A stretch of DNA of 63,878 bases from an uncultured bacterium (GCA_913009415.1 CAJVYM010000001.1:1-63878), one strand, 5' to 3'; shown: positions 1 through 12,000, counted from the stretch's first letter. The notes: a model not told the origin generated them from the letters alone. Translations and numbers: made by a program.

Positions 1-328
1 TTTCATCATCTTCCATGGACGCACCGTCAGAGGCTAGCCGGGATTGCCCATGAGAGCCGGAACCCTGTATTGATAGTGATAGATGGGGACTGCGTCCGCT
101 GCCTGCTGGATCTGCCACGGCTTGGTGCCGACTCGTTCTCCAAGCGGCAGCAAGAACAGGTCCAGCGCCCGCTCGAACGTGTGGTCGCGATGCTCCTCGC
201 CAAAGAGCAGGAACTCCTGCACCCATCGTACCAGGTGTGGTTGGTGCTTGGGGGGCTAAGTCCCGATCTCGTAGGAACTTCGCATAGCCTTCGAGCACTG
301 TTTTCAGTTTCTTTCCAATCTCGCGCAT
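1..328 (-). pseudogene. Integron-type tyrosine recombinase (IntI-like), N-terminal part only, apparently disrupted; runs off the window
   Basis: Reverse strand from ATG 328 reads MREIGKKLKTVLEGYAKFLRDRDLAP. After a frame change at the G6 run 250-255 it reads KHQPHLVRWVQEFLLFGEEHRDHTFERALDLFLLPLGERVGTKPWQIQQAADAVPIYHYQY. There is an in-frame TAG at 36-34. The VRWV...(K)PWQIQQA...Y pattern resembles the SAM-like N-terminal domain of integron integrases. The catalytic domain lies outside the window. Confidence 0.5.
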
Positions 329-378
329 ATTTAGACCCCAGATTATGTACAATCTCCATAACTACCGTAATCGTGACA

Positions 379-520
379 TTATGTTAACCCGTGGCCAGAG
401 TCCTGTCCAAGGATTCCTGAGTTTTCGGTTGACAGTGAGGGTTTGACGACTACAATAAGGAAGTGGTATGGGAGTTCTTTGCTGGCAAACGGAGATTTTG
501 TGTAGAATAAGAAGTTGGCC
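379..520 (+). other. attI-like platform ending in crossover box GTTGGCC (514-520)
   Basis: It lies between the divergent intI remnant and the first cassette. GTTGGCC sits 6 nt before the ATG of ORF 527. The same heptamer is the R' box of attC1 and the complement of the GGCCAAC R'' boxes. Confidence 0.45.
429..456 (+). promoter_or_regulatory. Sigma70-like promoter facing the cassette array (Pc-like)
   Basis: TTGACA (429-434), 16-nt spacer, TACAAT (451-456). Confidence 0.5.
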
Positions 521-526
521 TGAGAG

Positions 527-1456
527 ATGAAAGACCATATTCAGAGAGCCCTATTGGCGAAACGGGAGTCGAAGTATGTCGACTTCAAAGGCGAACTTGA
601 TTTCGCAGAGCCTCACACTTGGTGCGAGATCGTCAAGGACATCGTCGCCATGGCGAACTCTGGCGGAGGTGTGCTCCTCATCGGACTGGATAACAAAGGC
701 GTTCCCACCGGATTTGATCCCCAGCCGATTCTTGACATTGACGAAGCGATTGTGACGGACAAGATCGAGAAGTATACAGGCGTTCAGTTCGATGGTTTCA
801 CGATTTCGGAAGAGAAGAAGAGAGGGAATCGCCTTGTGGCGATCCTTGTCGAAGGCGTATCTATCCCCATCGTCTTCACCAAACCTGGGACGTATGCCGT
901 CAGTAACAAGAAGCAGAAGACAGCATTCTCTGCAGGAACAGTCTACTTCCGACATGGTGCGAAAAGCGAACCTGGCAACACAAATGACCTTCGAAAAGTT
1001 ATCGAGCGTCAACTCGATGCTATCAGGCGATCATGGTTGAAGGGGGTTCGCAAGGTGGTCAAAGCTCCACCGGGGAGCCAAGTCTATACTTTTCCATCTG
1101 GCGTTGATGTCCGTGAGTCAGCATCCTCAGATGCGCGGGCGATTCGGATCGTGGACGACCCAGACGCCCCCGCGTACCGCAAGCTTGACTACGACCTTAC
1201 ACACCCGTTTCGACAGAAGGAGGCGGTTGCCGAGATCAATCGCGGACTTGCGGGAAGGACGTCTGTCAACTCGTTCGATATCCAGTGTATCAATCGGGTT
1301 TATGAGATGTGGGACAAAGATGAACTCTGTCACATACCGAAGTTCTCATCGCCGCAGTACTCGCGGGAATATGTATCTTGGGTAATCAGGCAATATGAAC
1401 AAGACAACGATTTCTTCACGAAGACTAGATCTATCGACTACGAACAGAGACATTAG
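527..1456 (+). CDS. AlbA_2 / Schlafen-type putative DNA-binding domain protein (cassette 1)
   Basis: 309-aa ORF. The N-terminus ESKYVDFKGELD...IVKDIVAMANSGGGVLLIGLDNKG matches the AlbA_2 domain signature as I recall it. The stop is 1 nt before attC1. Confidence 0.75.
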   Translation: MKDHIQRALLAKRESKYVDFKGELDFAEPHTWCEIVKDIVAMANSGGGVLLIGLDNKGVPTGFDPQPILDIDEAIVTDKIEKYTGVQFDGFTISEEKKRGNRLVAILVEGVSIPIVFTKPGTYAVSNKKQKTAFSAGTVYFRHGAKSEPGNTNDLRKVIERQLDAIRRSWLKGVRKVVKAPPGSQVYTFPSGVDVRESASSDARAIRIVDDPDAPAYRKLDYDLTHPFRQKEAVAEINRGLAGRTSVNSFDIQCINRVYEMWDKDELCHIPKFSSPQYSREYVSWVIRQYEQDNDFFTKTRSIDYEQRH

Positions 1457-1457
1457 A

Positions 1458-1527
1458 GGCCAACAATTGAATGCACTTGACCAAGAATAGCTACGCGATT
1501 CTTGGCAAGTGATTCAGATCGTTGGCC
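1458..1527 (+). repeat. attC recombination site 1 (70 nt)
   Basis: GGCCAAC-N9-CACTTGaCCAAGAAT-loop-ATTCTTGGcAAGTG-N9-GTTGGCC. This is an imperfect hairpin with one extrahelical A in the 5' arm. Its outer boxes fit RYYYAAC / GTTRRRY-like cores. Confidence 0.7.
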
Positions 1528-1565
1528 GTAAAAAACAAGCGCGGGGCATATAAATAGGTAGGGAC

Positions 1566-2207
1566 ATGGAAATAAGTAAAATTACAGATCCCAATAATCC
1601 TAAAATCTCTCCCAAATATCGTGCAAGTGATTATCGATCTTTAAATCTGCATGCAGATAAAAACGATAATTGGGAAAGAGCTACAGATATATTTTATGAT
1701 CGAATTAACGGACGATTTCTTGCGCCAATTGATGCAATTGTTAATCATGATTCGTACGAAATTAGAGAGTTTTCCGGATTTTCAATTCTTGCAATTGATT
1801 GTCTTATTATTGAAACATTAAATCAATTTTATAAAGGAATGGACGAAACGAGAGGAAAAAATTGGATAGCGTTTAGAGACTTCTTTCGGAATAGTCGGCA
1901 TTTTATGGATGAATTCAGAACAGATAAGATGTGCGAAATATTTTATGGCCATTTTCGATGTGGTCTGCTTCATCAAGCTCAAACAAAAAAACAATCAAAA
2001 ATACGTTATGGCGAGAGTCGTATGATTCAGCTAGCAGATGAGTCAGATGTAAGAAAAGGACTTATAGTAGATAGAAAATTATTTCATAATGCGATTAAGT
2101 TGGAAATCAAAGATTATATTGAGAGACTAAAAAAACCGAATTCTAAAGATTGCAAAATGTTACGACGCAATTTTATAAAGAAGATGGATTTTATTACAAA
2201 AGTATGA
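1566..2207 (+). CDS. Hypothetical protein, AT-rich orphan (cassette 2)
   Basis: 213-aa ORF with much lower GC than its surroundings and a Lys/Asn/Ile/Phe-rich composition. It is bounded by attC1 and attC2. I recognise no family. Confidence 0.7.
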   Translation: MEISKITDPNNPKISPKYRASDYRSLNLHADKNDNWERATDIFYDRINGRFLAPIDAIVNHDSYEIREFSGFSILAIDCLIIETLNQFYKGMDETRGKNWIAFRDFFRNSRHFMDEFRTDKMCEIFYGHFRCGLLHQAQTKKQSKIRYGESRMIQLADESDVRKGLIVDRKLFHNAIKLEIKDYIERLKKPNSKDCKMLRRNFIKKMDFITKV

Positions 2208-2213
2208 ATATTC

Positions 2214-2285
2214 GGCCAACAAAGCGCTCCACTTGACCGCTATTCCGCTGCGCTCCATAGCGGCAAGTGAGCTTGGTCGTTAGAC
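2214..2285 (+). repeat. attC recombination site 2 (72 nt)
   Basis: GGCCAAC-N9-CACTTGaCCGCTAT-loop-ATAGCGGcAAGTG-N9-GTTAGAC. It has the same architecture and the same extrahelical A as attC1, and starts 6 nt after the ORF stop. Confidence 0.7.
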
Positions 2286-2355
2286 TCTTGCCCATACAGT
2301 TCCTTGCGAGCACAATAAATGTGGTAGTGGATTATGGAACACGTTCCCTAGGAGG

Positions 2356-2568
2356 ATGGAAATGCCCTCTACAGCCATTGCTACGGTGGAGAAAATGTTG
2401 GAGTCTTTGCCCCAAGAAGCGCAAGAACAGGTAGTGGAACACCTACGAGAATATATCATGGACTTGCAGGATGAGCTTCGGTGGGATACGTTGTTCAAGC
2501 ATGCTCAGGATAAACTCGTTGCGGCGGCTTCAGTACCTCAACGATTTCGTCCATATCCGCCAGCATGA
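2356..2568 (+). CDS. Small antitoxin-like protein, possibly 3'-truncated
   Basis: An AGGAGG RBS precedes the ORF. ATVEKMLESLPQEAQEQVVEHLREYIMDLQDELRWDTLF resembles small helical antitoxin-type proteins. No partner toxin ORF follows, and the C-terminus runs into the duplicated platform. Confidence 0.4.
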   Translation: MEMPSTAIATVEKMLESLPQEAQEQVVEHLREYIMDLQDELRWDTLFKHAQDKLVAAASVPQRFRPYPPA

Positions 2569-2603
2569 CATACCCAACTCCCAAAATCACCATCAAATAC
2601 TTG

Positions 2604-2748
2604 TTATGTTAATCCATGCACGATCTTGTGAGGGCTTTTTCCGCCATTCCCCTTGGCAGACTCTCGTCGAAGTATCATAATAAGGTTCGTTCGCTGGTGA
2701 ACGCTCGCCGGGGAGAATGGAGATTTTGGACAGAATAAGAAGTTCGGG
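2604..2748 (+). repeat. Second copy of the Pc/attI-like platform
   Basis: Shared blocks with 379-520: TTATGTTAAYCC; promoter hexamers TTGGCA-17-CATAAT (2653-2681) followed by AATAAGG; GCTGGYRAACG; and GGAGATTTTGNNNAGAATAAGAAGTT. The two copies diverge immediately after the GTT. Confidence 0.55.
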
Positions 2749-2757
2749 AGAAATAAG

Positions 2758-3228
2758 ATGAACCAATACAATGAAAAGCCTATCTCTTGCCTCGTTCGCC
2801 ACTGCCGAATGTACATTTATGCATCAGGCGGTAGCCCTGAGCCTATGGTCAACCAAAGCGCGGGAGATTTCTTTAACTTTAGCCTCTTACATCTCATATC
2901 AACAATGTTCATCACTACAGATTCACAAAGCGATCCCGAGGGAGGCGCCTTTCATCGCATTCTTGATCCCTTGGGGTATGGTACATTGCTGGGCCCTATA
3001 GACAATATACTTGATTCCCAAGTAGGGAATACAATACTAAGGCAATATATCAGGTCAAAGAGGAATAAATTGGCCGTACATGGTTCTCTGGAATTTTCCT
3101 CTCAGCCCCGTGAAGTACAGGATGTTACATTCGATAAGGAAGCACTTATGCAATTTGAGAAAAGGATGCAAGATCTTGATGAGGCTGTTGGTGTCTTAGA
3201 AGGAGAACTTGAAAAGATTGAAAAATAG
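2758..3228 (+). CDS. Hypothetical protein (cassette after the second platform)
   Basis: 156-aa ORF. Its ATG sits 13 nt after the GTT of the platform copy, mirroring ORF 527. The C-terminal half looks coiled-coil-like. No family recognised. Confidence 0.6.
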   Translation: MNQYNEKPISCLVRHCRMYIYASGGSPEPMVNQSAGDFFNFSLLHLISTMFITTDSQSDPEGGAFHRILDPLGYGTLLGPIDNILDSQVGNTILRQYIRSKRNKLAVHGSLEFSSQPREVQDVTFDKEALMQFEKRMQDLDEAVGVLEGELEKIEK

Positions 3229-3235
3229 ATGAATT

Positions 3236-3300
3236 CCCAAACTAGTGGCCGGAGAGGGACGCGGCAAAAAACGCCGCGCCCCTCAGCCAGCCCGTTACGA
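3236..3300 (+). repeat. attC-like hairpin 3 (65 nt)
   Basis: CCCAAAC...GGGaCGCGGC-loop-GCCGCGcCCC...GTTACGA. The left box is complementary in 6 of 7 positions to the GTTCGGG that begins this cassette. Confidence 0.4.
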
Positions 3301-3310
3301 GTACTCAGGA

Positions 3311-3577
3311 ATGATACACCAACGGCAACGGCAGGAGATGAACTGCTGGGAGTACATGAACTGCGGATGCCAGCCCAGCGGAGACAAAGCCGCGGAGCTC
3401 TGTGAATGTCCGGCGACCGTCGTCGGAGAGTATACCGACGGCAGATATAACAGAGGCACGTGTCTTGGCTGCCAGAGCTTTGGGATCGGCTTTAGCGTCT
3501 GGTCTTGCAATCCAACACATTCACCGGCCTTGTGTGTCTTTCTCATACCCCTGAACCCGCAGCTTGTACAACGTTAG
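3311..3577 (+). CDS. Small cysteine-rich protein with a two-CW-like N-terminal motif
   Basis: MNCWEYMNCG...AAELCECPA...GTCLGCQSF resembles the NCWE(F/Y)xxCG motif of two-CW domain proteins. An alternative start is ATG 3338. The 3' end lies inside repeat A. Confidence 0.35.
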   Translation: MIHQRQRQEMNCWEYMNCGCQPSGDKAAELCECPATVVGEYTDGRYNRGTCLGCQSFGIGFSVWSCNPTHSPALCVFLIPLNPQLVQR

Positions 3578-3645
3578 CGAGTTGGCGCGTCCACACGGAA
3601 AGGCTTTGAGATATGGGGTATGCGGAAACCTCGTGGCAAGCTACG
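3479..3645 (+). repeat. Direct repeat copy A (about 160 nt)
   Basis: Aligns by eye with 5612-5762. Example blocks: TTTGGGATCGGCTTTAG, GTCTGGTCTT, TCCAACACATTCACC, ATACCCCTGAA, AACGTTAGC, GGCAAG.CTACG. Confidence 0.7.
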
Positions 3646-3943
3646 GGAAATCCAACCCACAGAGATTAAATGATCTGCCGCCGGCGGGTTGCCCAAGGCT
3701 TACTGACACCTACGGCGAGGACTTCTTCTTCCGGGTAACCCAACACTGCCACAAACTTCTGACAGGGATAGCGAGGCCGCTCTGTGGGTACAGGGATCCC
3801 CGAAGCGCGTGCCGTGCCATCGTTTCTTGGAATCCAGACGCACGTGGTACCATTACGGATGCCTTGTGCGGTGAAACGTAAGGCAGGGAATCAAACCACG
3901 CCATCAACCTGACGCCCAAGGCCGGGGGCCTCGGCCGCAGGTT

Positions 3944-4061
3944 ATGTTCCCGTTCGGTAATATTTGTGTTAAAAAGACTCGTGTACAACAAAATGTTCCC
4001 GTTCGGTAATATTTTGCTTGACAGGCACTCCGTGGTACGGTATATTCCCGATCGGTAACAT
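3944..4061 (+). promoter_or_regulatory. hipBA promoter with three palindromic operators
   Basis: Three 20-mers: ATGTTCCCGTTCGGTAATAT at 3944 and 3993, and the inverted variant ATATTCCCGATCGGTAACAT at 4042. They are spaced exactly 49 bp apart. The promoter is TTGACA (4018-4023), 17 nt, TATATT (4041-4046). Confidence 0.6.
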
Positions 4062-4302
4062 GAATACTACTAAGAATCCAGAGCAGCTTGGCGCCTCTAT
4101 TCGCGCAAGGCGCAGACAGTTGAAGGTCACCCAGAAGGACCTGGCGATGACTTGTGGTACGGGTTTGCGCTTCATTATTGATCTTGAGAAGGGCAAGCGA
4201 ACCTGCCAAATTGGAAAGACCCTACAGGTTCTCAACGCCCTGGGGCTCGAACTGCAGATCGCTATCCCTGGCGGTGACACTGACCAAGGCGAGAAGCCAT
4301 GA
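4060..4302 (+). CDS. hipB: XRE-family HTH antitoxin HipB
   Basis: LGASIRARRRQLKVTQKDLAMTCGTGLRFIIDLEKGK is an HTH_XRE pattern. The stop overlaps the hipA start (ATGA). Confidence 0.8.
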   Translation: MNTTKNPEQLGASIRARRRQLKVTQKDLAMTCGTGLRFIIDLEKGKRTCQIGKTLQVLNALGLELQIAIPGGDTDQGEKP

Positions 4303-5555
4303 ACAACTTGATCGTTTATCTGAACGCCGAGAGAGTGGGAACCCTCGAACAAGACGATAGTGGCTTGATGCAATTCTCCTACAATCAGGCATGGCTGGAG
4401 AAGCCGGGCGCCATGCCCCTCTCCCGTTCACTGCCTCTCCAAAGCGAGGTGTTCTCTGGAAAAAAGGCTAGGCCTTTCTTTGCGGGCATACTGCCTGAAG
4501 ATCGACCACGAGAAAAGATAGCAGAGATTCTCGGGATCAGTAACACCAATGACTTTGCAATGCTAGAGAGGATAGGAGGCGAGTGCGCCGGCGCTGTCAG
4601 CCTGCTTCCTGAAGGCGTTGCTCCGATAGATCCGAAAAGTGCTCGGCATCGCGAACTGACCGAACCGGAGTTGCGACAACTCATAGCCGAGTTACCCAGT
4701 CGTCCCTTAATGGTTGGTAAGTATGGACTGCGACTCTCACTCGCCGGTGCGCAGGACAAATTGCCCATTATCGTTCATAATAACAGAATATGTCTCCCTC
4801 TTGGCGGTACTCCCAGTACTCACATACTAAAACCGGAGCCAGATCGTTTTCCGGGACTGGCCGCCAACGAGATTTTCTGTATGACTCTAGCGCAGGCAGT
4901 TGGTTTGAACACACCCAATACGGAATATCGTCTGATCGGAAAGAAATCGTGTATTCTAGTTCAAAGATATGACCGAGCGACTGATGAAGAAGGTCGTACG
5001 ACCCGACTCCACCAAGAGGACTTCTGCCAGGCATTGGGATTTCCACCGGAGCGAAAGTACCAGGCAGAGGGGGGGCCAACGCTTAGCGACTGCATTTCGC
5101 TGCTTCGGGACTGGTCCACTGCACCAGTTCTTGATATCCCCAGCTTTATAAACGGCCTGATTTTCAATGTGTTGATTGGCAACGCCGATGCTCACGGCAA
5201 GAACTACTCGTTATTGTATTCTGGTGGCGAACGACGGCTATCTCCCTATTATGATCTTGTCTCCACTCTTGCTTGGCCTGGCCTCTCCAAGAATCTCGCG
5301 ATGAAAATTGGTGGCTGCGAATCAGTCAACGCATTCACGATTGGTGAATGGAAGAAGATGGCAAAGAAGGCTGGTCTCGGTTGGCCGATGATACGAGAAC
5401 GAATGGCAGAAAGCTGCCACAGTGTTTTGAACGAGCTTGGCGAGGTCCAGGCACAGACCAGAGAATACAGCGATTCGATGGTTACACTACTTCATGAAAC
5501 CATAGGAAGTCGCGTGGCCAGAATGCTTGAAGCACTTTCCCAGCAAGACCACTAG
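4299..5555 (+). CDS. hipA: HipA-family serine/threonine kinase toxin
   Basis: 418 aa with a HipA N-terminal coupling region. It also has LAGAQDKLP and GNADAHGKNYSLLY kinase motifs. Confidence 0.9.
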   Translation: MNNLIVYLNAERVGTLEQDDSGLMQFSYNQAWLEKPGAMPLSRSLPLQSEVFSGKKARPFFAGILPEDRPREKIAEILGISNTNDFAMLERIGGECAGAVSLLPEGVAPIDPKSARHRELTEPELRQLIAELPSRPLMVGKYGLRLSLAGAQDKLPIIVHNNRICLPLGGTPSTHILKPEPDRFPGLAANEIFCMTLAQAVGLNTPNTEYRLIGKKSCILVQRYDRATDEEGRTTRLHQEDFCQALGFPPERKYQAEGGPTLSDCISLLRDWSTAPVLDIPSFINGLIFNVLIGNADAHGKNYSLLYSGGERRLSPYYDLVSTLAWPGLSKNLAMKIGGCESVNAFTIGEWKKMAKKAGLGWPMIRERMAESCHSVLNELGEVQAQTREYSDSMVTLLHETIGSRVARMLEALSQQDH

Positions 5556-5611
5556 TCGAACCACAGGATTCAGCCGACTCGCAAGCTCGCAGCTGATCCA
5601 AACGTAAGGCG

Positions 5612-5762
5612 TTTGGGATCGGCTTTAGGGTCTGGTCTTCCAGTCCAACACATTCACCAGCCTTGCATTTTCCTATACCCCTGAAACCGCCGCTTGAATA
5701 ACGTTAGCACGTGTTCACGCAGAGGCTTGGAGATGGGGCGAACTGCCGTTGGCAAGTCTACG
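5612..5762 (+). repeat. Direct repeat copy B
   Basis: Roughly four-fifths identical by eye to 3479-3645, with small indels. It lies between hipA and the DUF433 promoter. Confidence 0.7.
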
Positions 5763-5770
5763 CGTTGAGA

Positions 5771-5799
5771 TTGGATGGTAGGGTAGCCCGCTGTATAAT
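5771..5799 (+). promoter_or_regulatory. Sigma70-like promoter of the DUF433/DUF5615 pair
   Basis: TTGGAT, 17 nt, TATAAT, followed by a GGAGG RBS and ATG 5817. Confidence 0.5.
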
Positions 5800-5816
5800 C
5801 CTTGCGGAGGAAGATC

Positions 5817-6041
5817 ATGTCCAAGATCGCTGATCGCATCGTAGTCGACATGCAAGTGATGCACGGGAAGCCCGTCATCGCTGGAACCCGCATTCCTGTC
5901 TATGTCGTGCTCAACTTGCTAGCTGGCGGCTTCAGTCCGGAGCAGGTTCTCAAAGAATATCCTGATCTCATCCTCGAAGATGTCCAAGCGTGTCTGGCCT
6001 ATGCCGCGCGCTTGGCGGAGGAAGAAGTCGGGGTTTTCTGA
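5817..6041 (+). CDS. DUF433 domain protein (antitoxin-like)
   Basis: IVVDMQVMHGKPVIAGTRIPVYVVLNLLAGGFSPEQVLKEYPDL is the typical DUF433 pattern. Confidence 0.8.
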   Translation: MSKIADRIVVDMQVMHGKPVIAGTRIPVYVVLNLLAGGFSPEQVLKEYPDLILEDVQACLAYAARLAEEEVGVF

Positions 6042-6047
6042 AGCACC

Positions 6048-6410
6048 GTGATGAGGTTCTTGATAGACGAGAATATATCGCCATTGGTTGCTGAAGCCTT
6101 ACGGCAGCAGGGCTATGATGTGCAACATGTCCGCGAGATTGGGTTGAAAGGCCGACCCGACTCAGAGATCATGGCCTACACCCGGAGTGAGAGGCGATGC
6201 CTAGTTACTTTAGATGAGGATTTTGCCGATCTGCGTTTCTACCCCTTGGGCACGCATGCTGGGATCATTCGTCTCAAGCTCAAGTTCGCCCCATCCTCAA
6301 CGGTTATCACGTGTTTGACGCACCTCCTGCCACAGCTCCAGGCAGACCTCTTGGAGAAGGGAAGTCTGATTATCTCTGAGGGGACCACATATCGCATCCG
6401 AGTTCCCTGA
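6048..6410 (+). CDS. DUF5615 / Mut7-C-like PIN-type putative toxin
   Basis: MRFLIDENISPLVAEALRQQGYDVQHV...CLVTLDEDFADL. It is the usual partner of DUF433. Confidence 0.8.
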   Translation: MMRFLIDENISPLVAEALRQQGYDVQHVREIGLKGRPDSEIMAYTRSERRCLVTLDEDFADLRFYPLGTHAGIIRLKLKFAPSSTVITCLTHLLPQLQADLLEKGSLIISEGTTYRIRVP

Positions 6411-6591
6411 GGGCTTGGGTTGCCCTGTTTTCTTAGAAAGAGGGCGATGAAGCTATGTTCCACCCCAAGTTCTTGTCGCGATGCCCTCAGCGCTCCCAAA
6501 GACCTCAGGGATTCTGTTACTTCGCCAGATCGCTCGTTCTCCAAGCAAATCGTTGCACCGGCTCTGCCCCTGTGGTACCCTCTTGTTTGCC

Positions 6592-7581
6592 ATGCAGAGC
6601 CCCACGATGACTGATAACAACGTGCATCCCACAGCCTCATCCCTCCTTGTTGTCCCGCACGGGACTGACAGGGTAGCCGAGGGACGGCGGCGCGCGGCCA
6701 CGTTGCTCGCACGTTCCCCTCAAGAGAAGAGTCTCGTCCTCCGAGGAGGACATCCCGACCTGATAGAGCTTTCCGCACCGGAAGGGAAGGAAAAGATAGG
6801 GATCGCGCAGGTGCGCGAGGTGATCCACCAGGCGCAGTTTGCCCCCACGCAGGCCACACAAAAGGTATGTCTGCTGCCGCGTGCCGAGCAACTGACGATG
6901 GAAGCGGCAAACGCTCTTCTTAAGGTATTGGAAGAGCCGCCGCGCGGCCTTGTGTTCCTCTTCCTTGCCGAGAATCCGGGCGATCTCCTGTCGACAATCG
7001 TGTCGCGCAGCCAGGTTATCCGCGAGCGACCAAGCATCGATGTGGATAGCGTCTCCCGCCTGACCCAGGCCAGTTATGAGGAAAGGGAAGCTCATTACAT
7101 TGTTGACACAGTGGAAAATGAGAGCGAGCTGGAACAATTCATCGCTCATCCGATCGACCTTGCACACGCAAAGAAGGAAGCGGCTCAAGTGGCAGCGGAG
7201 GCAACAGGAACTGAACTTATCGCACTTGCCACAGGAGATGATCCGATCGTCAGGCGCGGGGCCACGTTACGGTTGCTGCGGCGGCTTACGCAAGGAGAGC
7301 ATGAGCTCGCCATCGTTTCCTCTATCGCCATCGCTCGCGCTGGGCGTGAGGCCGCCGCGCGCTTGCTCGGGCAGCTACTCACGGCATCATTCTCCGCGCT
7401 GCGTGAAGCAGTGGAGGAAGAAGGCAATCATCGTGCCGACCAGCCCAGGCTAGGGCTGGATCCAACCGCGTGGGGTGCCACTTGCCAGCGCATCCAACGG
7501 GCACAACGAGCGCTTGACCGCTATACTTTCCCCGACGGAGTCTTCCTGTCGCTCTTTCTTGGCATAGGCAGAGGTGGATGA
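6592..7581 (+). CDS. holB: DNA polymerase III delta' subunit
   Basis: GGHPDLIEL...IGIAQVREV...KVCLLPRAEQLTMEAANALLKVLEEPP. The start is uncertain (ATG 6592 or 6607); the longer ORF from 6481 lacks support. Confidence 0.8.
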   Translation: MQSPTMTDNNVHPTASSLLVVPHGTDRVAEGRRRAATLLARSPQEKSLVLRGGHPDLIELSAPEGKEKIGIAQVREVIHQAQFAPTQATQKVCLLPRAEQLTMEAANALLKVLEEPPRGLVFLFLAENPGDLLSTIVSRSQVIRERPSIDVDSVSRLTQASYEEREAHYIVDTVENESELEQFIAHPIDLAHAKKEAAQVAAEATGTELIALATGDDPIVRRGATLRLLRRLTQGEHELAIVSSIAIARAGREAAARLLGQLLTASFSALREAVEEEGNHRADQPRLGLDPTAWGATCQRIQRAQRALDRYTFPDGVFLSLFLGIGRGG

Positions 7582-8402
7582 TGGCTGAAGAAAATATATT
7601 TCTCGTGCGAGTCTTGAATCTGGAGCGAGACAGCGGGTACTTTCACGCACAGTCTGGGACGTTTGCCCCAGATGATCGCTGCATTGTTGACCACAACGGC
7701 CTGCACATGGGCATCGTGTTGAGCGTCCTCGCCGCTGGTGCGGGGGTCGGTGAGCAGCTTGAACAGCTGGTGCGCAAAGCGACGGCAAGCGATATGGACG
7801 CGTACGCCCATAACCAGGCCGAGGCCGAACGGGTGCTCTCTTCAACGCGAGAAGTGATCGTGAGCCACGATCTGCCGATGCATCTGGTTGCCGCCGAGTA
7901 CACGATCGACCGCGCGCACGTGCGCATCTACTTTACCGCCCCACATCGCGTCGATTTTCGTGCCCTGCTGCGCGATCTCGCCGGACGCTTCGGGGTGCGT
8001 ATCGAGCTTCGCCAGATGGGCGCGCGCGATGAGGCGAAGCTGAAGGGGGGAATCGGCCGCTGTGGCCGCGTTCTGTGTTGTCATCAGTTCCTGCACGATC
8101 CCACTCCCGTCCCGATGGAATTTGCCTACGATCAGGAGCTGTTCGTCCCGCCGGAGCGGATCACAGGGGTCTGCGGGCGGCTCATGTGCTGCCTTGCCTA
8201 CGAGCATGAGGCATACAGGGCGGAACTTGCACAGATGCCCAAACTTGGGATGTGGGTGAGTTACAAGGACAAGCGGGGAAAGGTGATCGCACACAACATC
8301 TTCAGGCACACCGTCACGCTCCTAACAAGGGAACGCGATCGGATCGAGGCCGATATCGCGGAGGTCAACCCCGCGTCTGCGACGCGGAAGCAGAAGGACT
8401 GA
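7578..8402 (+). CDS. ricT: PSP1 domain protein (RicT/YaaT-like)
   Basis: FGVRIELRQMGARDEAKLKGGIGRCGRVLCCHQFL...GVCGRLMCCLAYE. It shows the classic holB-yaaT synteny. Confidence 0.85.
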   Translation: MMAEENIFLVRVLNLERDSGYFHAQSGTFAPDDRCIVDHNGLHMGIVLSVLAAGAGVGEQLEQLVRKATASDMDAYAHNQAEAERVLSSTREVIVSHDLPMHLVAAEYTIDRAHVRIYFTAPHRVDFRALLRDLAGRFGVRIELRQMGARDEAKLKGGIGRCGRVLCCHQFLHDPTPVPMEFAYDQELFVPPERITGVCGRLMCCLAYEHEAYRAELAQMPKLGMWVSYKDKRGKVIAHNIFRHTVTLLTRERDRIEADIAEVNPASATRKQKD

Positions 8403-9750
8403 TCCTCCCACCTTTTCTCAGCAGACGCGCCAAGTTCTCATCGGAGAGTGTAGCTTCAATCTCGATTCCTTCCTTTGTATAGCCACAAACCGTGAGCCGC
8501 TCTCGCTGTGAGAGCAGGTGCACTTCCTGCATCATGTTATAGGGAATGAGGAGCGAGACATCGTGTTTCCCTTGCGATAGAATGCCCTGCACGCGCGCGA
8601 GGAGACCATCCATCTTTGTGCCATCTCGCGCAGAGATGAGTACGGGCTTGTGGAATGCTTCCGTCTTGATCTCACCAGCAGAGATGAGATCGATCTTGTT
8701 CAGAACGTCAATCACAGACGGGCGCGGCTCATCAGTTGTGAAGACCTCATGATCGAGGGTGGCGATGACGCTCTGGTAGTCCTCGTTGCAAGTAGGACGG
8801 GAGGAATCGACGACGTGAAGGAGGAGATCGGCATCGCGTACCGTTTCCAGCGTAGCGGCGAAGGCAGGGATGAGGTGGTGTGGAAGGTTGCGGATGAACC
8901 CCACCGTATCGGCAAACAGCGCCCACTGACCGGGTGCGATCTCGCCCCTCCTGACGGTTGTCGTCAGGGTGGCGAAGAGCTTGTTCTCAACGAGCACATC
9001 GGATGCGCAAAGCCTGTTGAGAAGCGTCGACTTGCCGCTATTTGTGTACCCAACGAGGGCGATGAGCGGAAATGGCCCAGATCGGCGCTTGTGGCTGCGC
9101 AGGGCGCGTTCGGCACGGGCCTTCTTCAGACGCCGTTCGATCGCGTGGATGCGCCGGTTGATCTTCTTGCGGTCGAGTTCCAGCTGCGTCTCGCCCGGTC
9201 CCCGCGTTCCGATACCTCCACCGAGCCGCGTTAAGGCGCTTCCCCAGCCGCGCAGGCGTGGAAGGAGGTAGCGCAGTTGCGCAAGCTCCACCTGCAGCCT
9301 CGCCTCCTTGGTCGCCGCACGCTGGGCGAAGATGTCCATTATCAGTTGCGCGCGATCGATCACCTTTGTCTTCATCTTCTCTTCGAGGTTTCTCGCCTGC
9401 GCGGGAGAGAGCTCGTCATCGAAGATGATGACATCCGCGTGAAGCTCGTACGCCGCTGCCTTCACCTCGGATACTTTCCCCTTGCCGATGAAGTAGCGCG
9501 GGTCGGGACGCGTGCGGTTCTGCACGACCTCGAGGAGCGAGGGAATTCCGGCGGTGTTGGCGAGAGCCGTGAGCTCGCGCAGTGATTCGTCGACATCATT
9601 ATCTGATGTCTGCACCGCCACCAGGACCGCCTTCTCGCTTCCGTAGATGCGGGCTCGCTTTCCGAGGCGATCCTCACTGAGGTGAGCCTCACCGAGGCGA
9701 TGCTCGGGAAGAGGGCGATCGCTAGCCGACGCGCTCAATGTCCCCTCCAA
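8365..9750 (-). CDS. hflX: GTPase HflX
   Basis: GTRGPGETQLELDRKKI and VALVGYTNSGKSTLLNRL motifs. Confidence 0.9.
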   Translation of the reverse strand: MEGTLSASASDRPLPEHRLGEAHLSEDRLGKRARIYGSEKAVLVAVQTSDNDVDESLRELTALANTAGIPSLLEVVQNRTRPDPRYFIGKGKVSEVKAAAYELHADVIIFDDELSPAQARNLEEKMKTKVIDRAQLIMDIFAQRAATKEARLQVELAQLRYLLPRLRGWGSALTRLGGGIGTRGPGETQLELDRKKINRRIHAIERRLKKARAERALRSHKRRSGPFPLIALVGYTNSGKSTLLNRLCASDVLVENKLFATLTTTVRRGEIAPGQWALFADTVGFIRNLPHHLIPAFAATLETVRDADLLLHVVDSSRPTCNEDYQSVIATLDHEVFTTDEPRPSVIDVLNKIDLISAGEIKTEAFHKPVLISARDGTKMDGLLARVQGILSQGKHDVSLLIPYNMMQEVHLLSQRERLTVCGYTKEGIEIEATLSDENLARLLRKGGRISPSASASQTRG

Positions 9751-10969
9751 TGCTTCGAAGCTTCTGCGCCATGTGTTCGTACCCCCGATCGATCTGCTCC
9801 AGGTTGTCGATTGTGCTCTCTCCCTGTGCGGCTAGGGCGGCAAGAACCAGCGCCGCACCAGCGCGGATGTCGGGCGCGCTCGCTGCCGTGGCATGAAGCT
9901 TGTCGACTCCGGTGATCACCGCCCTTCGTCCGCTCACCGTAATTCTTGCCCCCATTTGCCGTAGGGTTGCGGTGTAGGTGAACCTATGTTCGAAGATCCG
10001 CTCTTCCACACTGCTCTTCCCTTGAGCCAGGCTCAGTAGCGCGACAAGCGGCGGCTGTAGGTCGGTTGGAAAGCCCGGGTAGGGAGCGGTGATCGTATCG
10101 ATCGGGTGCGGGCGAGAGCCACGTGTGAGCCTGATCGCGCCATCTGTCTCCTCGATCTTACAACCCATCTCAGAGAGGATGGACAAGAGGAGGCGCAAGT
10201 GCTCGGGGACGACGCCGCGCACCGTCACATCGCCGCCGGTGATCGCCGAGGCGATGAGGTACGTACCCGCTTCCATCCGATCGGGAATCACGGCATGCCT
10301 CGTGCCATGAAGGGTGGGCCTTCCACGAACATGGAGCGATCCGTCCCTGTATTCGATCTCGCCGCCCATATCGTTTAGCAAAGCTACGAGGTCCATCACC
10401 TCCGGCTCCCAAGCGGCGTTCTCGATCACCGTCTCTCCCTTAGCAAGGCAGGCGCTCATCGCGATCTGTTCGGTTGCTCCAACCGATGGGAAGGGGAGGC
10501 TGATCCTCGCACCGCGGAGATGCTTGGCGACGAGCGTCACGGTATTCCCCTTTTCAGTCACCCGTGCTCCGAGGGCACGCAGGCCGTGGAGATGAAGGTC
10601 GACCGAGCGGGCGCCGATCTTGCATCCGCCGGGGAGAGGGACGAGCGCACGACCGAGGCGGGCGACGAGTGGACCGAGAACGAGGAAGGAGGCGCGCATC
10701 TGTTCGACGAATCCCGCTTGCGCCTCGGAATGGATCTCCCCTCCGCACGCGATCGATACTCTTTCGCCATCGCGTACAACGAGCTTTCCAAGCGACGAGA
10801 TGGTCGAGAGGATCGTTTGGACATCGCGCAGGCGTGGCACGTGGTCGATCGTGACCTCATCGTCTGTCAACAGCGAAGCAACGCATGCAGGAAGCGCTGC
10901 GTTCTTGGCTCCGGAGATGGTGATAGTCCCTAAAAGGGGGCGGTCGCCCCGGATAACAAAGTGCTCCAT
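9722..10969 (-). CDS. murA: UDP-N-acetylglucosamine 1-carboxyvinyltransferase
   Basis: MEHFVIRGDRPLLGTITISGAKNAALP and full-length MurA-like sequence. Confidence 0.95.
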   Translation of the reverse strand: MEHFVIRGDRPLLGTITISGAKNAALPACVASLLTDDEVTIDHVPRLRDVQTILSTISSLGKLVVRDGERVSIACGGEIHSEAQAGFVEQMRASFLVLGPLVARLGRALVPLPGGCKIGARSVDLHLHGLRALGARVTEKGNTVTLVAKHLRGARISLPFPSVGATEQIAMSACLAKGETVIENAAWEPEVMDLVALLNDMGGEIEYRDGSLHVRGRPTLHGTRHAVIPDRMEAGTYLIASAITGGDVTVRGVVPEHLRLLLSILSEMGCKIEETDGAIRLTRGSRPHPIDTITAPYPGFPTDLQPPLVALLSLAQGKSSVEERIFEHRFTYTATLRQMGARITVSGRRAVITGVDKLHATAASAPDIRAGAALVLAALAAQGESTIDNLEQIDRGYEHMAQKLRSIGGDIERVG

Positions 10970-12000
10970 CAGGTGGGAAGGTAACGCTGCGGGTCGATCG
11001 GGAACTCTCCGTTTCGCACCTCGAAGTGCAGGTGTGGCCCGGTGGAGAGGCCCGTGTTCCCAGACTCGGCGATCGGCTGCCCGACCTCAACGTACTGCCC
11101 TTTAGAGACGAGAATGCTCGACAGGTGACCGTAGACCGTGTAGTAGTTGTCGGAGTGCTGGAGGATGATCATCGTACCGTACCCCGAATCCTCGCCGGTG
11201 AAATACACTTTCCCTGGTGCCGCCGCATGCACGATCGTCCCTACGGGAACATCGATGTCGATCCCGTTGTGGCGCTGTCGTTCCCCGGTGACGGGGTTAT
11301 TGCGCCAACCAAAGGGAGAGGTAATCTTCCCTTCCAGCGGCCAGATGAACCGCGCCACCTTCCCGTGCGATAGGCGAATCACTGTTTGCCACAGGTCGGT
11401 CGTCGCCCCAGGAATGATGATCCCCTTCCCAGCGAATATCCGCCCGGGATCGGTGATTCCGTTTGCCTGCGTAATCTTGTCGATCGGCACACCGTAGGTG
11501 ATGAAAATATCGGTCAGCGTCTGCCCCCTCTTGATTACGTGAACTAACCCATTGGTTGTCGCGTACAGTGTCTCTCCCACTGTGATTTCGCTGGGTGAGA
11601 CGAGATTGTTATCGGCCATGAGCTGCGCTGTAGTGACATTCATCGTAGAGGCTATCTGGTCAAGCGTCTCATCCGCTGCCACGACGTGCGTGAGGATCCC
11701 CGCAGCCGTTGTAGCCGACTCGTTAACAGGTGCTTCAGCGCCCGCACTTCCGCTTGCTGACCCAGTACCCGTGCTCGGCGTAACAGACGTGGCCGTTTCA
11801 GTACCTGCTTGCGGACCAGTCAGCGGCAGCACAGCGAGCGGCGCAGTGGTCGTACCCGAAGGCGGCGTATTAGTTGCTGTTGTTCGGGTAGTTGGTTTCG
11901 ATCCGCCGGAATGGATGAGTATGGGGATCAGAATAACGGCAACAAGAAAAAGGAGAGCAATCAATACACGATCTCTACGAATCGGTTTTTTCTTAGTCAC
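10969..12000 (-). CDS. LysM-domain M23 family metallopeptidase
   Basis: An N-terminal TM segment, then two LysM-like segments (HVVAADETLDQIA, HVIKRGQTLTDIF). The M23 core includes HNGIDI...GNTGLSTGPHLHFEV. Confidence 0.85.
   Translation of the reverse strand: MTKKKPIRRDRVLIALLFLVAVILIPILIHSGGSKPTTRTTATNTPPSGTTTAPLAVLPLTGPQAGTETATSVTPSTGTGSASGSAGAEAPVNESATTAAGILTHVVAADETLDQIASTMNVTTAQLMADNNLVSPSEITVGETLYATTNGLVHVIKRGQTLTDIFITYGVPIDKITQANGITDPGRIFAGKGIIIPGATTDLWQTVIRLSHGKVARFIWPLEGKITSPFGWRNNPVTGERQRHNGIDIDVPVGTIVHAAAPGKVYFTGEDSGYGTMIILQHSDNYYTVYGHLSSILVSKGQYVEVGQPIAESGNTGLSTGPHLHFEVRNGEFPIDPQRYLPT

Follow-up and report, generated by a model that had tools for sequence, protein, structure and literature searches.

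The left end of a 63,878-nucleotide stretch of DNA from an uncultured bacterium (GCA_913009415.1, CAJVYM010000001.1:1-63878; hereafter, the window) is very probably the head of a sedentary chromosomal integron whose integrase gene, intI, is no longer functional. Contig C1 of a metagenome-assembled genome (MAG) of Candidatus Bipolaricaulota (Acetothermia) opens with the window, position 1 being a contig end. The MAG has a size of 2.32 Mb distributed over 180 contigs, a G+C content of 55.9% and a completeness of 91%. A first-pass annotation of the sequence had described positions 1-6420 as one chromosomal integron with a decayed integrase. The observation is confirmed and the integron interpretation is supported, with corrections: the integron reading stands, but the region is not a single array, because a second intI stub and a second attI site are present at 2530-2744.

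Results

An integrase remnant at the start of the contig

The contig begins with the 5' part of an integrase gene:

1-328, minus strand: intI remnant, codons 1 to ~98, encoding a clade-specific N-terminal extension domain; truncated by the contig start

The remnant opens at the ATG at 328-326, reading MREIGKKLKTVLEGYAKFLRDRDLAP. Its reading frame shifts within a G6/C6 run at 250-255 (C6 on the plus strand), past which it reads KHQPHLVRWVQEF...YQYRVPALMGNPG (resuming as KHQPHLVRWVQEFLLFGEEHRDHTFERALDLFLLPLGERVGTKPWQIQQAADAVPIYHYQYRVPALMGNPG) up to a TAG at 36-34, and the contig end lies 33 nt beyond this stop codon. The IntI-type N-terminal piece on the reverse strand that the first-pass annotation had described, with a frameshift in the G6 run and an in-frame TAG, is thereby borne out: in a tblastn comparison with the intact IntI of a relative (G180:C137, an Acetothermia UBA9294 contig), the remnant was 58% identical over aa 1-26 and 80% identical over aa 26-90. 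The intact homologs carry two residues between A and K (LAP[P/L]KHQP), and therefore the remnant is either short of 2 nt or has 1 nt too many.

On sequence grounds, the remnant falls within a clade whose members are bona fide integron integrases. Fifty-eight proteins, the G180 protein included, share its N-terminus; all of them have integrase domains, in most cases PF13495 plus PF00589. Their length is mostly ~426 aa, and the sources call several of them 'integron integrase'. One of these homologs scored 415 bits over residues 112-426 against TIGR02249, the curated integron-integrase model, which has a cut-off of 265 bits. The IntI-specific insertion (ALARKYPGAGKEWGWQYAFP) is present in the G180 relative, and an ALARKYP..WGWQY insertion is present in homologs. 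It should be noted that the remnant covers aa 1 to ~98 only, upstream of the region modelled by TIGR02249, and that the catalytic domain and the IntI-specific insertion are visible solely in the homologs. As MAFFT scatters the 70-aa remnant along full-length integrases, a separate alignment was used instead.

The first ~110 residues of the clade gave no match to Pfam or NCBIfam, and an hhalign comparison of this extension with the SAM-like domain was weak (E 0.003, probability 10%). Within the clade proteins themselves (P0001-P0058; L011 11995-13230), the extension aligns weakly with their own SAM-like domain, at 30% identity over 67 columns. The sequences suggest an internal domain duplication behind the ~110-aa extension.

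Searches of the MAG with TIGR02249, and by tblastn with the intact homolog, recovered no further pieces of intI, and only a Xer-like gene on contig C75. The left end of the contig has no 21-mer in common with any other contig of the MAG. An IntI scoring above the curated cut-off is found in just 3 of the 74 genomes of the family.

The predicted cassette promoter and the attI site

The intI start is followed by elements that, together with it, constitute what we refer to as the platform:

348-388: two conserved blocks between the intI start and Pc1, TACAATCTCCATAAC at 348-362 and ATTATGTTAAC at 378-388
429-456, plus strand: Pc1, the predicted cassette promoter (Pc), with TTGACA at 429-434, a 16-nt spacer and TACAAT at 451-456
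482-516, plus strand: attI-1 core, CTGGCAAACGGAGATTTTGTGTAGAATAAGAAGTT, with the crossover at G514/T515

In a promoter scan, Pc1 matched 11 of the 12 consensus positions, and its -35 and -10 boxes are retained in most of the 27 platform copies from related genomes. GTTGGCC is present at 514-520, leaving a gap of 6 nt to the ATG at 527; both this junction and the TTGACA/TACAAT promoter had been annotated earlier, and both are found where they had been placed.

The attI motif (GGAGATTTTGTGTAGAATAAGAAGTT, 491-516) terminates in the GTT of GTTGGCC. With at most 2 mismatches, 27 copies of it were detected in 12 of the 184 genomes of the phylum, all belonging to one family, and none with the reversed control. 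The copies are alike through GTT and unrelated beyond it, the bases that follow being mostly RRRY. The distance from the attI-1 GTT (514-516) to the intI start is 186 nt; in G180, ~165 nt separate the motif from the intact intI start, and the motif lies on the opposite strand between intI and the first cassette. The attI core is also found behind promoters in contigs labelled Desulfobacteraceae, Planctomycetaceae, Phycisphaerae, Pirellulales, Verrucomicrobiota, Thermodesulfobacteriota and PVC group, and in one such case (a Desulfobacteraceae contig) it lies beside a full-length integrase that is 70% identical to the Acetothermia IntI. An attI site beside a divergent intI, with a crossover between G and TT of a GTTRRRY core, is a feature of integrons, and this arrangement is found at 514-516. 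In addition, the R'' boxes (the 5' core boxes of attC) of first cassettes are complementary to the bases that come after the G of the core. We identify 482-516 as an attI site, with its predicted Pc promoter.

The two blocks at 348-388 make an inverted CATAAC...GTTATG pair and are kept in platforms of Bipolaricaulota, Desulfobacteraceae, Pirellulales, Thermodesulfobacteriota and PVC-group contigs. They may constitute the intI promoter/operator or accessory integrase-binding sites. Near the intI start, blocks TACAATCTCCATAAC and GTTATGTTAA are conserved in contigs from other phyla (L120, L048, L082, L133, L095, L117 and L056) and form an inverted GTTATG pair. GTTATGGAG is also present within the DR1 integrase-binding repeat of attI1.

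Three attC sites in the first 4 kb

A first attC model was seeded with attC1, attC2 and one site of contig C14, and further sites in relatives were then recovered. The covariance model R3 was built from 18 sites, none of them from the window, and was used in an unfiltered scan of the 63.9 kb on both strands. It gave three attC matches, all on the plus strand and within the first 4 kb:

1458-1527, plus strand: attC1, 1 nt past a stop codon; R3 45.0 bits, E 3e-8
2214-2285, plus strand: attC2, 6 nt past a stop codon; R3 74.6 bits, E 3e-15
3890-3958, plus strand: attC3, with R'' (the 5' core box of attC) ATCAAAC, stem AACCTG-a-C...G-CAGGTT and R' GTTCGGT; R3 30.4 bits, E 7e-5

Beyond these three, the best match in the scan reached just 11.6 bits. 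With model R2, attC3 scored 24.6 bits.

The first-pass annotation had proposed that attC1 and attC2 share one architecture with a single extrahelical A and start 1-6 nt after a stop codon, and had named a covariance model and folding of the bottom strands as checks. The architecture is indeed shared (GGCCAAC-N9-CACTTG-a-CC ... GG-CAAGTG-N9-GTTNNNN), and both sites were recovered by the lineage-specific model built without them. The bottom-strand DNA of attC1 folds at -24.8 kcal/mol (z -8.2) and that of attC2 at -18.7 kcal/mol (z -2.7), with the extrahelical base in the 3' half of the folded bottom strand. The attC sites of relatives are all co-stranded with the attI motif of their locus. In a 16-sequence attC alignment, both sides change in 13 of the 17 modelled pairs, and 86.9% of the cells are paired, versus 26-48% when the partners were slid; none of 500 shuffles reached the observed values. 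The features that define attC sites of integrons, namely an R''-L''...L'-R' layout with AAC/GTT cores, extrahelical bases that confer strand polarity and a variable loop, are thus present. An Rfam scan of 1-12000 with E up to 10 returned two chance-level matches only; Rfam is without an attC family.

Cassettes 1 and 2 and the logic of their junctions

Two complete cassettes follow attI-1:

515-1521, plus strand: cassette 1, ORF (open reading frame) 527-1456, 309 aa, AlbA_2/Schlafen-type (PF04326, E 2e-13), plus attC1
1522-2279, plus strand: cassette 2, orphan ORF 1566-2207, 213 aa, plus attC2

If the crossover takes place between G and TT, each cassette should begin with bases complementary to the R'' of its own attC. 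This expectation, which had also been put forward in the earlier annotation, was tested on the four variable R'' bases of 31 cassettes from the window, its own genome, relatives and other phyla, and it held: R'' matched the start of its own cassette at 3.23 of 4 positions. Random pairings gave 1.93, the junction downstream of the same attC gave 2.10, and a value as high as that observed was reached by none of 2000 random sets. In the window, the R'' of attC1 and of attC2 (GGCCAAC) are fully complementary to TTGGCC at 515-520 and 1522-1527, such that cassettes 1 and 2 each have 4 of 4 matches.

Each of these cassettes contains one ORF, beginning 12 nt (cassette 1) and 44 nt (cassette 2) past the junction, and the promoter-like matches inside them are weak (9/12) and on the minus strand only. 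Integron cassettes are typically co-oriented, promoterless, usually single-gene units bounded by G/TT, and this is how cassettes 1 and 2 are built. The G+C content of cassette 2 is 31.6%, versus 55.9% for the genome, which indicates a foreign origin. ORF 1566-2207, and ORF 2758-3228 described below, gave no match to Pfam, NCBIfam or PADLOC. PADLOC gave only weak matches on the cassette proteins, and we claim no defence role for them.

A truncated third cassette and a second platform

Downstream of attC2 the array is interrupted:

2280-2529, plus strand: truncated cassette 3, 5' part of a small antitoxin-like gene, ORF from 2356
2530-2744: second platform, with intI stub, Pc2 and attI-2 core; aligns with other platform copies and repeats 488-537
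2653-2681, plus strand: Pc2, TTGGCA-17-CATAAT (promoter scan)
2758-3228, plus strand: orphan ORF, 156 aa, the first gene past attI-2
3246-3293: G+C-rich hairpin after ORF 2758-3228; fold z -4.2, attC model -0.8 bits
3311-3577, plus strand: partial two-CW-domain ORF, its 3' end entering repeat A; NF045718 29.5 bits, below the cut-off of 35
3479-3806, plus strand: repeat A, a conserved non-coding element
5612-5766: repeat B, a shorter copy of repeat A

Over 250 nt, positions 2280-2529 share 96.4% identity with C130:3002-3251 in this genome; the identity stops at 2529. On C130, a complete, two-gene toxin-antitoxin-like version of cassette 3 sits between two attC sites. The stub of the second platform consists of 8-9 intI codons on the minus strand (ATG at 2554-2552, MDEIVEVL), and the crossover of attI-2 is at G2742/T2743. 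Since the identity to cassette 3 ends at 2529 and the alignment with platforms starts at 2530, we infer that a deletion fused cassette 3 to a second, tandem integron. The surroundings of the intact copy (G000:C130 2280-4150) show the order AbrB/MazE-like plus PemK/MazF-like pair, attC, full cassette 3, attC, BrnT/BrnA-like pair.

The R'' of attC3 is complementary to the attI-2 junction at only 1 of 4 positions. This misfit indicates that an intervening junction was lost and that a further rearrangement took place. The hairpin at 3236-3300 was considered as a possible attC: it can be parsed by hand as R''-N9-stem-N9-R', with 3 of 4 R'' positions fitting the attI-2 junction, yet it was rejected at -0.8 bits. 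ORF 3311-3577 is, by its sequence, probably chimeric.

Repeats A and B are 85% identical over 100 nt and bracket attC3 and the hipBA genes described below. Identity between repeat A and G156:C111:12755-13082 reaches 93%, higher than that of the neighbouring holB DNA (72-83%). In G154 and G161, the element is found where the array ends, immediately upstream of holB. Rfam gave no match for it, and it does not fold significantly. The stretches 3479-3578 and 5612-5708 (ending AACGTTAGC) were rejected as long attC sites, as they fold no better than shuffles (z +1.8 and -1.2) and correspond to the array-end element of relatives. A 51-nt piece of the element is also present just upstream of the G154 platform.

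Toxin-antitoxin genes and the right border

The remainder of the region up to the core genes contains two toxin-antitoxin-like gene pairs:

3944-5555, plus strand: hipBA module, with operator-like repeats 3944-4063, promoter 4018-4046, hipB 4060-4302 and hipA 4299-5555
5555-5610, plus strand: possible worn-down attC, with GTAAGGC where a GTT core is expected; weak, 6.2 bits, E 0.64 (1-kb search)
5817-6410, plus strand: DUF433/DUF5615 (PIN-like) pair, PF04255 E 1.5e-24 and PF18480 E 2.5e-26
6410-6426: terminator-like hairpin after DUF5615
from 6481: holB, where the core genes begin; right border

The hipBA module has the characteristics of a HipBA type II toxin-antitoxin system: hipB matched TIGR03070 (couple_hipB, 76 bits) and hipA matched HipA_C (PF07804, E 4e-52) and Couple_hipA (PF13657, E 2e-26), all three profiles being above their cut-offs, and hipB and hipA overlap by 4 nt. 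Three operator-like repeats (ATGTTCCCGTTCGGTAATATTT) precede hipB with a spacing of exactly 49 bp (3944-4063); the first overlaps the R' end of attC3, and the third overlaps the hipB start codon.

Between 3958 and holB there is no attC above 6.2 bits, and nothing attC-like was found downstream of DUF5615. In the absence of a convincing attC after hipA or DUF5615, the toxin-antitoxin pairs are to be regarded as neighbours of the array and not as proven cassettes. Thus, whereas orphan ORFs, hipBA and the DUF433/DUF5615 pair had all been listed as integron cargo and the genes are present, the cassette status of the two pairs is not demonstrated. By analogy with toxin-antitoxin cassettes in Vibrio arrays, hipBA and DUF433/DUF5615 probably stabilise the region.

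Chromosomal site and distribution of platforms in the lineage

In G154, a platform that is 82.7% identical to window 326-514 and an attC are present within 2.8 kb of holB, and in G156 an attI motif is located ~6 kb upstream of holB, on the same strand. The presence of a platform or attC upstream of holB in these two genomes suggests that the integron holds a conserved chromosomal site. In four further species of the genus, there is a contig break just upstream of holB. The attI core of the G156 platform (G156:C111, L173, ~6169-6194) reads ...AAGCAGCT versus ...AAGAAGTT, its GTT being mutated to GCT, and ~17 integrase codons are left.

Most platform copies are flanked by integrase stubs of 8 to 90 codons, or by none, and the genome studied here contains six attI motifs and 11 attC model matches, and no integrase. 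Two same-strand attI platforms located 1.6-8 kb apart are found on five contigs of four genomes (G131:C15, G131:C55, G155:C163, G181:C277 and the window), and tandem platforms seem to be a habit of the lineage rather than a single accident.

In six platform copies (L016 G000:C14 6793-8521, G000:C7, and contigs of G149, G156 and G181), a conserved 78-aa ORF replaces the integrase side. This ORF has a weak, antitoxin-like DUF7387 match; the platform supplies its final ~17 codons and, inside the -35 box (TCTTGACAG), its stop codon. The breakpoint, G/TTATGTTAAC, is a GTTRRRY-like core. On C14, the platform with the 78-aa ORF is followed by one A+T-rich HD-domain cassette with an attC of 71.6 bits.

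A short open frame across attI

498-530, plus strand: short open frame across attI, TTG...TGA, LCRIRSWPER; read from the sequence

The TTG at 498-500 lies 3 nt past GGAG, and the frame spans the crossover point. Its stop codon overlaps the start of ORF 527 as ATGA, and at attI-2 a frame at 2726-2761 likewise overlaps the next ATG. Where a cassette begins with TTAG, the frame ends AGT-TAG, in the same phase as ORF-11. Translational coupling by the short frame was considered and rejected, because the stop/ATG overlap occurs in only 5 of ~45 copies, which is near chance (roughly estimated at ~7%). ORF-11 in attI1 of class 1 integrons crosses the crossover and has its TAG at positions 3-5 of GTTAGNN (Hanau-Bercot 2002, reviewed in PMC8876359). 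The frames are alike in having GGAG and a start codon within attI and a stop in the GTTAGNN core or further on, by the start of the first cassette. They differ in that the start codon here is a TTG just 3 nt after GGAG, the sequences are unrelated, and the overlaps are not enriched above chance. The likeness to ORF-11 is a resemblance, not a finding, and a function for the short frame would be suggested by analogy only.

Discussion

Three other explanations of the region have to be weighed. That we are dealing with something other than an integron, the hairpins being generic intergenic palindromes or terminators and the recombinase coming from a phage or Xer-type integrase, is highly improbable. 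It is true that neither Pfam nor NCBIfam has a match to the 70-98-aa fragment itself, and that no curated attC model was applied, given that Rfam has no attC family. However, integrase domains are present in all 58 proteins sharing the N-terminus (58/58), one of which was tested and exceeds the cut-off of the integron-integrase model; moreover, the sites display the R''-L''-L'-R' layout, a conserved extrahelical base, covariation and strand polarity, and the G/TT junction complementarity holds, such that this explanation is already contradicted. A second explanation supposes an integron that has stayed active, with the frameshift and the TAG as assembly errors at a low-coverage contig end and a full intI extending beyond position 1. 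The gene does run off the contig start, its frameshift lies in a homopolymer, and the MAG is in 180 contigs. We nevertheless consider an active integron unlikely, because the frame of the homologs is restored by adding 2 nt, or by removing 1 nt at the cost of a conserved residue position, and neither is a simple ±1 homopolymer error, and because the TAG is a second, independent lesion 200 nt from the frameshift. In addition, the 91%-complete assembly lacks any catalytic intI fragment, and the orthologous holB-side platforms of sister species keep just 0 and ~17 integrase codons.

The remaining explanation accepts the integron, but takes 1-6420 as one continuous array in which hipBA and DUF433/DUF5615 are ordinary cassettes and the second promoter and attI are a cassette-borne promoter. 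All the genes are co-oriented, attC3 lies ahead of hipBA, a weak attC-like stretch is present past hipA, and toxin-antitoxin cassettes are common in the other array fragments of the genome (contig C130). There is little chance that this is correct, though, as 2530-2744 aligns with platform copies up to and including the integrase start and 8-9 codons on the minus strand, and cassette 3 is cut in mid-gene when compared with the full copy. Furthermore, no attC above 6.2 bits is present from 3958 to holB, and the repeat at 3479 and 5612 is the array-end element of relatives.

Several points weigh against our view that the window starts with an integron that has lost its integrase. The catalytic part of the integrase is absent from the contig, and its loss or decay is deduced from the frameshift, the TAG and the pattern in the lineage. 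The genome assembly is fragmented, as noted above. The attC model is lineage-specific, and the window's own sites served to bootstrap it before their removal. Finally, attC3 overlaps a hipB operator repeat, and its R'' misfits the nearest upstream junction.

A sedentary integron without a functional intI is nevertheless by far the most probable reading, and its history may be envisaged as follows. According to the established integron mechanism, an IntI of the ~426-aa clade would have recombined the folded bottom-strand attC of a circular cassette with the double-stranded attI, between G and TT, each incoming cassette being thereby placed directly behind Pc. A deletion later fused cassette 3, at its middle, with codon 8-9 of another integron lying in tandem, and Pc2 and attI-2 (2653-2744) would now drive the genes downstream. 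The present state would be that of a fossil, i.e., a cluster of attC sites that has no integron-integrase (CALIN) next to an intI pseudogene, with genes expressed from Pc1 and Pc2. The cassettes would be mobile only with an integrase supplied in trans; none is assembled in the genome.

How does this locus compare with known systems? Sedentary chromosomal integrons are recognised by their occupying the same chromosomal place in related genomes, or by having >19 attC sites (Cury et al. 2016, PMC4889954). Here, a platform or attC is present upstream of holB in two further species (G154 and G156), and the array is small. The locus agrees with the description of CALIN in the same study: it has three attC sites, 687 and 1605 nt apart, and the adjacent intI is disrupted in the assembly. 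Like CALIN and degraded sedentary integrons (PMC4889954), it combines three co-oriented attC sites in 4 kb with the lack of a functional integrase and an integrase remnant alongside, and its cargo consists mostly of unknown genes, with no resistance genes. Unlike them, it has a recognisable and conserved attI and Pc, which most surveys cannot assess, and two platforms in tandem. The pseudogene criterion of that study (IntI C-terminal profile, >50% coverage) is inapplicable, as the remnant is a 5' end only. The locus also resembles the superintegron of the Vibrio cholerae type in being chromosomal, in occupying a locus common to related species, in having a lineage-specific attC family, and in the toxin-antitoxin modules in or around its arrays (PMC8876359). 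However, it is far smaller, with 3 attC sites (11 model matches MAG-wide), its integrase is inactive, and the integrase has an extra ~110-aa N-terminal domain. Delta-attI sites are known from within the cassette arrays that mobile integrons carry (Gonzales Machuca et al. 2026, PMC12901181) and, like attI-2, are attI-derived sites within an array, downstream of other cassettes. In our case, on the other hand, what lies inside the array is an entire platform, with its stub and promoter and the complete attI core, joined through a mid-gene deletion, and not a short remnant acting as a cassette recombination site.

The ~35-bp attI core and the two GTTATG-type blocks are nearly unchanged in Bipolaricaulota, Desulfobacterota, Planctomycetota, Verrucomicrobiota and Thermodesulfobacteriota. 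It is conceivable, though on balance doubtful, that all these belong to one widely exchanged environmental integron lineage, in which the upstream blocks would serve as arm-type sites for the extra ~110-aa integrase domain, probably a second DNA-binding domain of the SAM-like type. If true, the tandem copies of stub, promoter and attI in Bipolaricaulota would keep driving cassette expression after loss of the integrase.

The locus is an ordinary new example of a well-known type of element, and the picture of how integrons function is unchanged by it. The literature that was searched contained no description of an integron from Bipolaricaulota or Acetothermia, although one related protein already bears the name 'integron integrase' at NCBI. 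The present analysis documents for the candidate phylum Bipolaricaulota/Acetothermia an integron whose attI, predicted cassette promoter, attC family and apparently conserved chromosomal site are defined, and the lineage-specific attC model and attI motif could serve to recover cassettes from anoxic-sediment metagenomes. It also illustrates a route of decay, in which the integrase is trimmed to stubs and the promoter and attI are kept.

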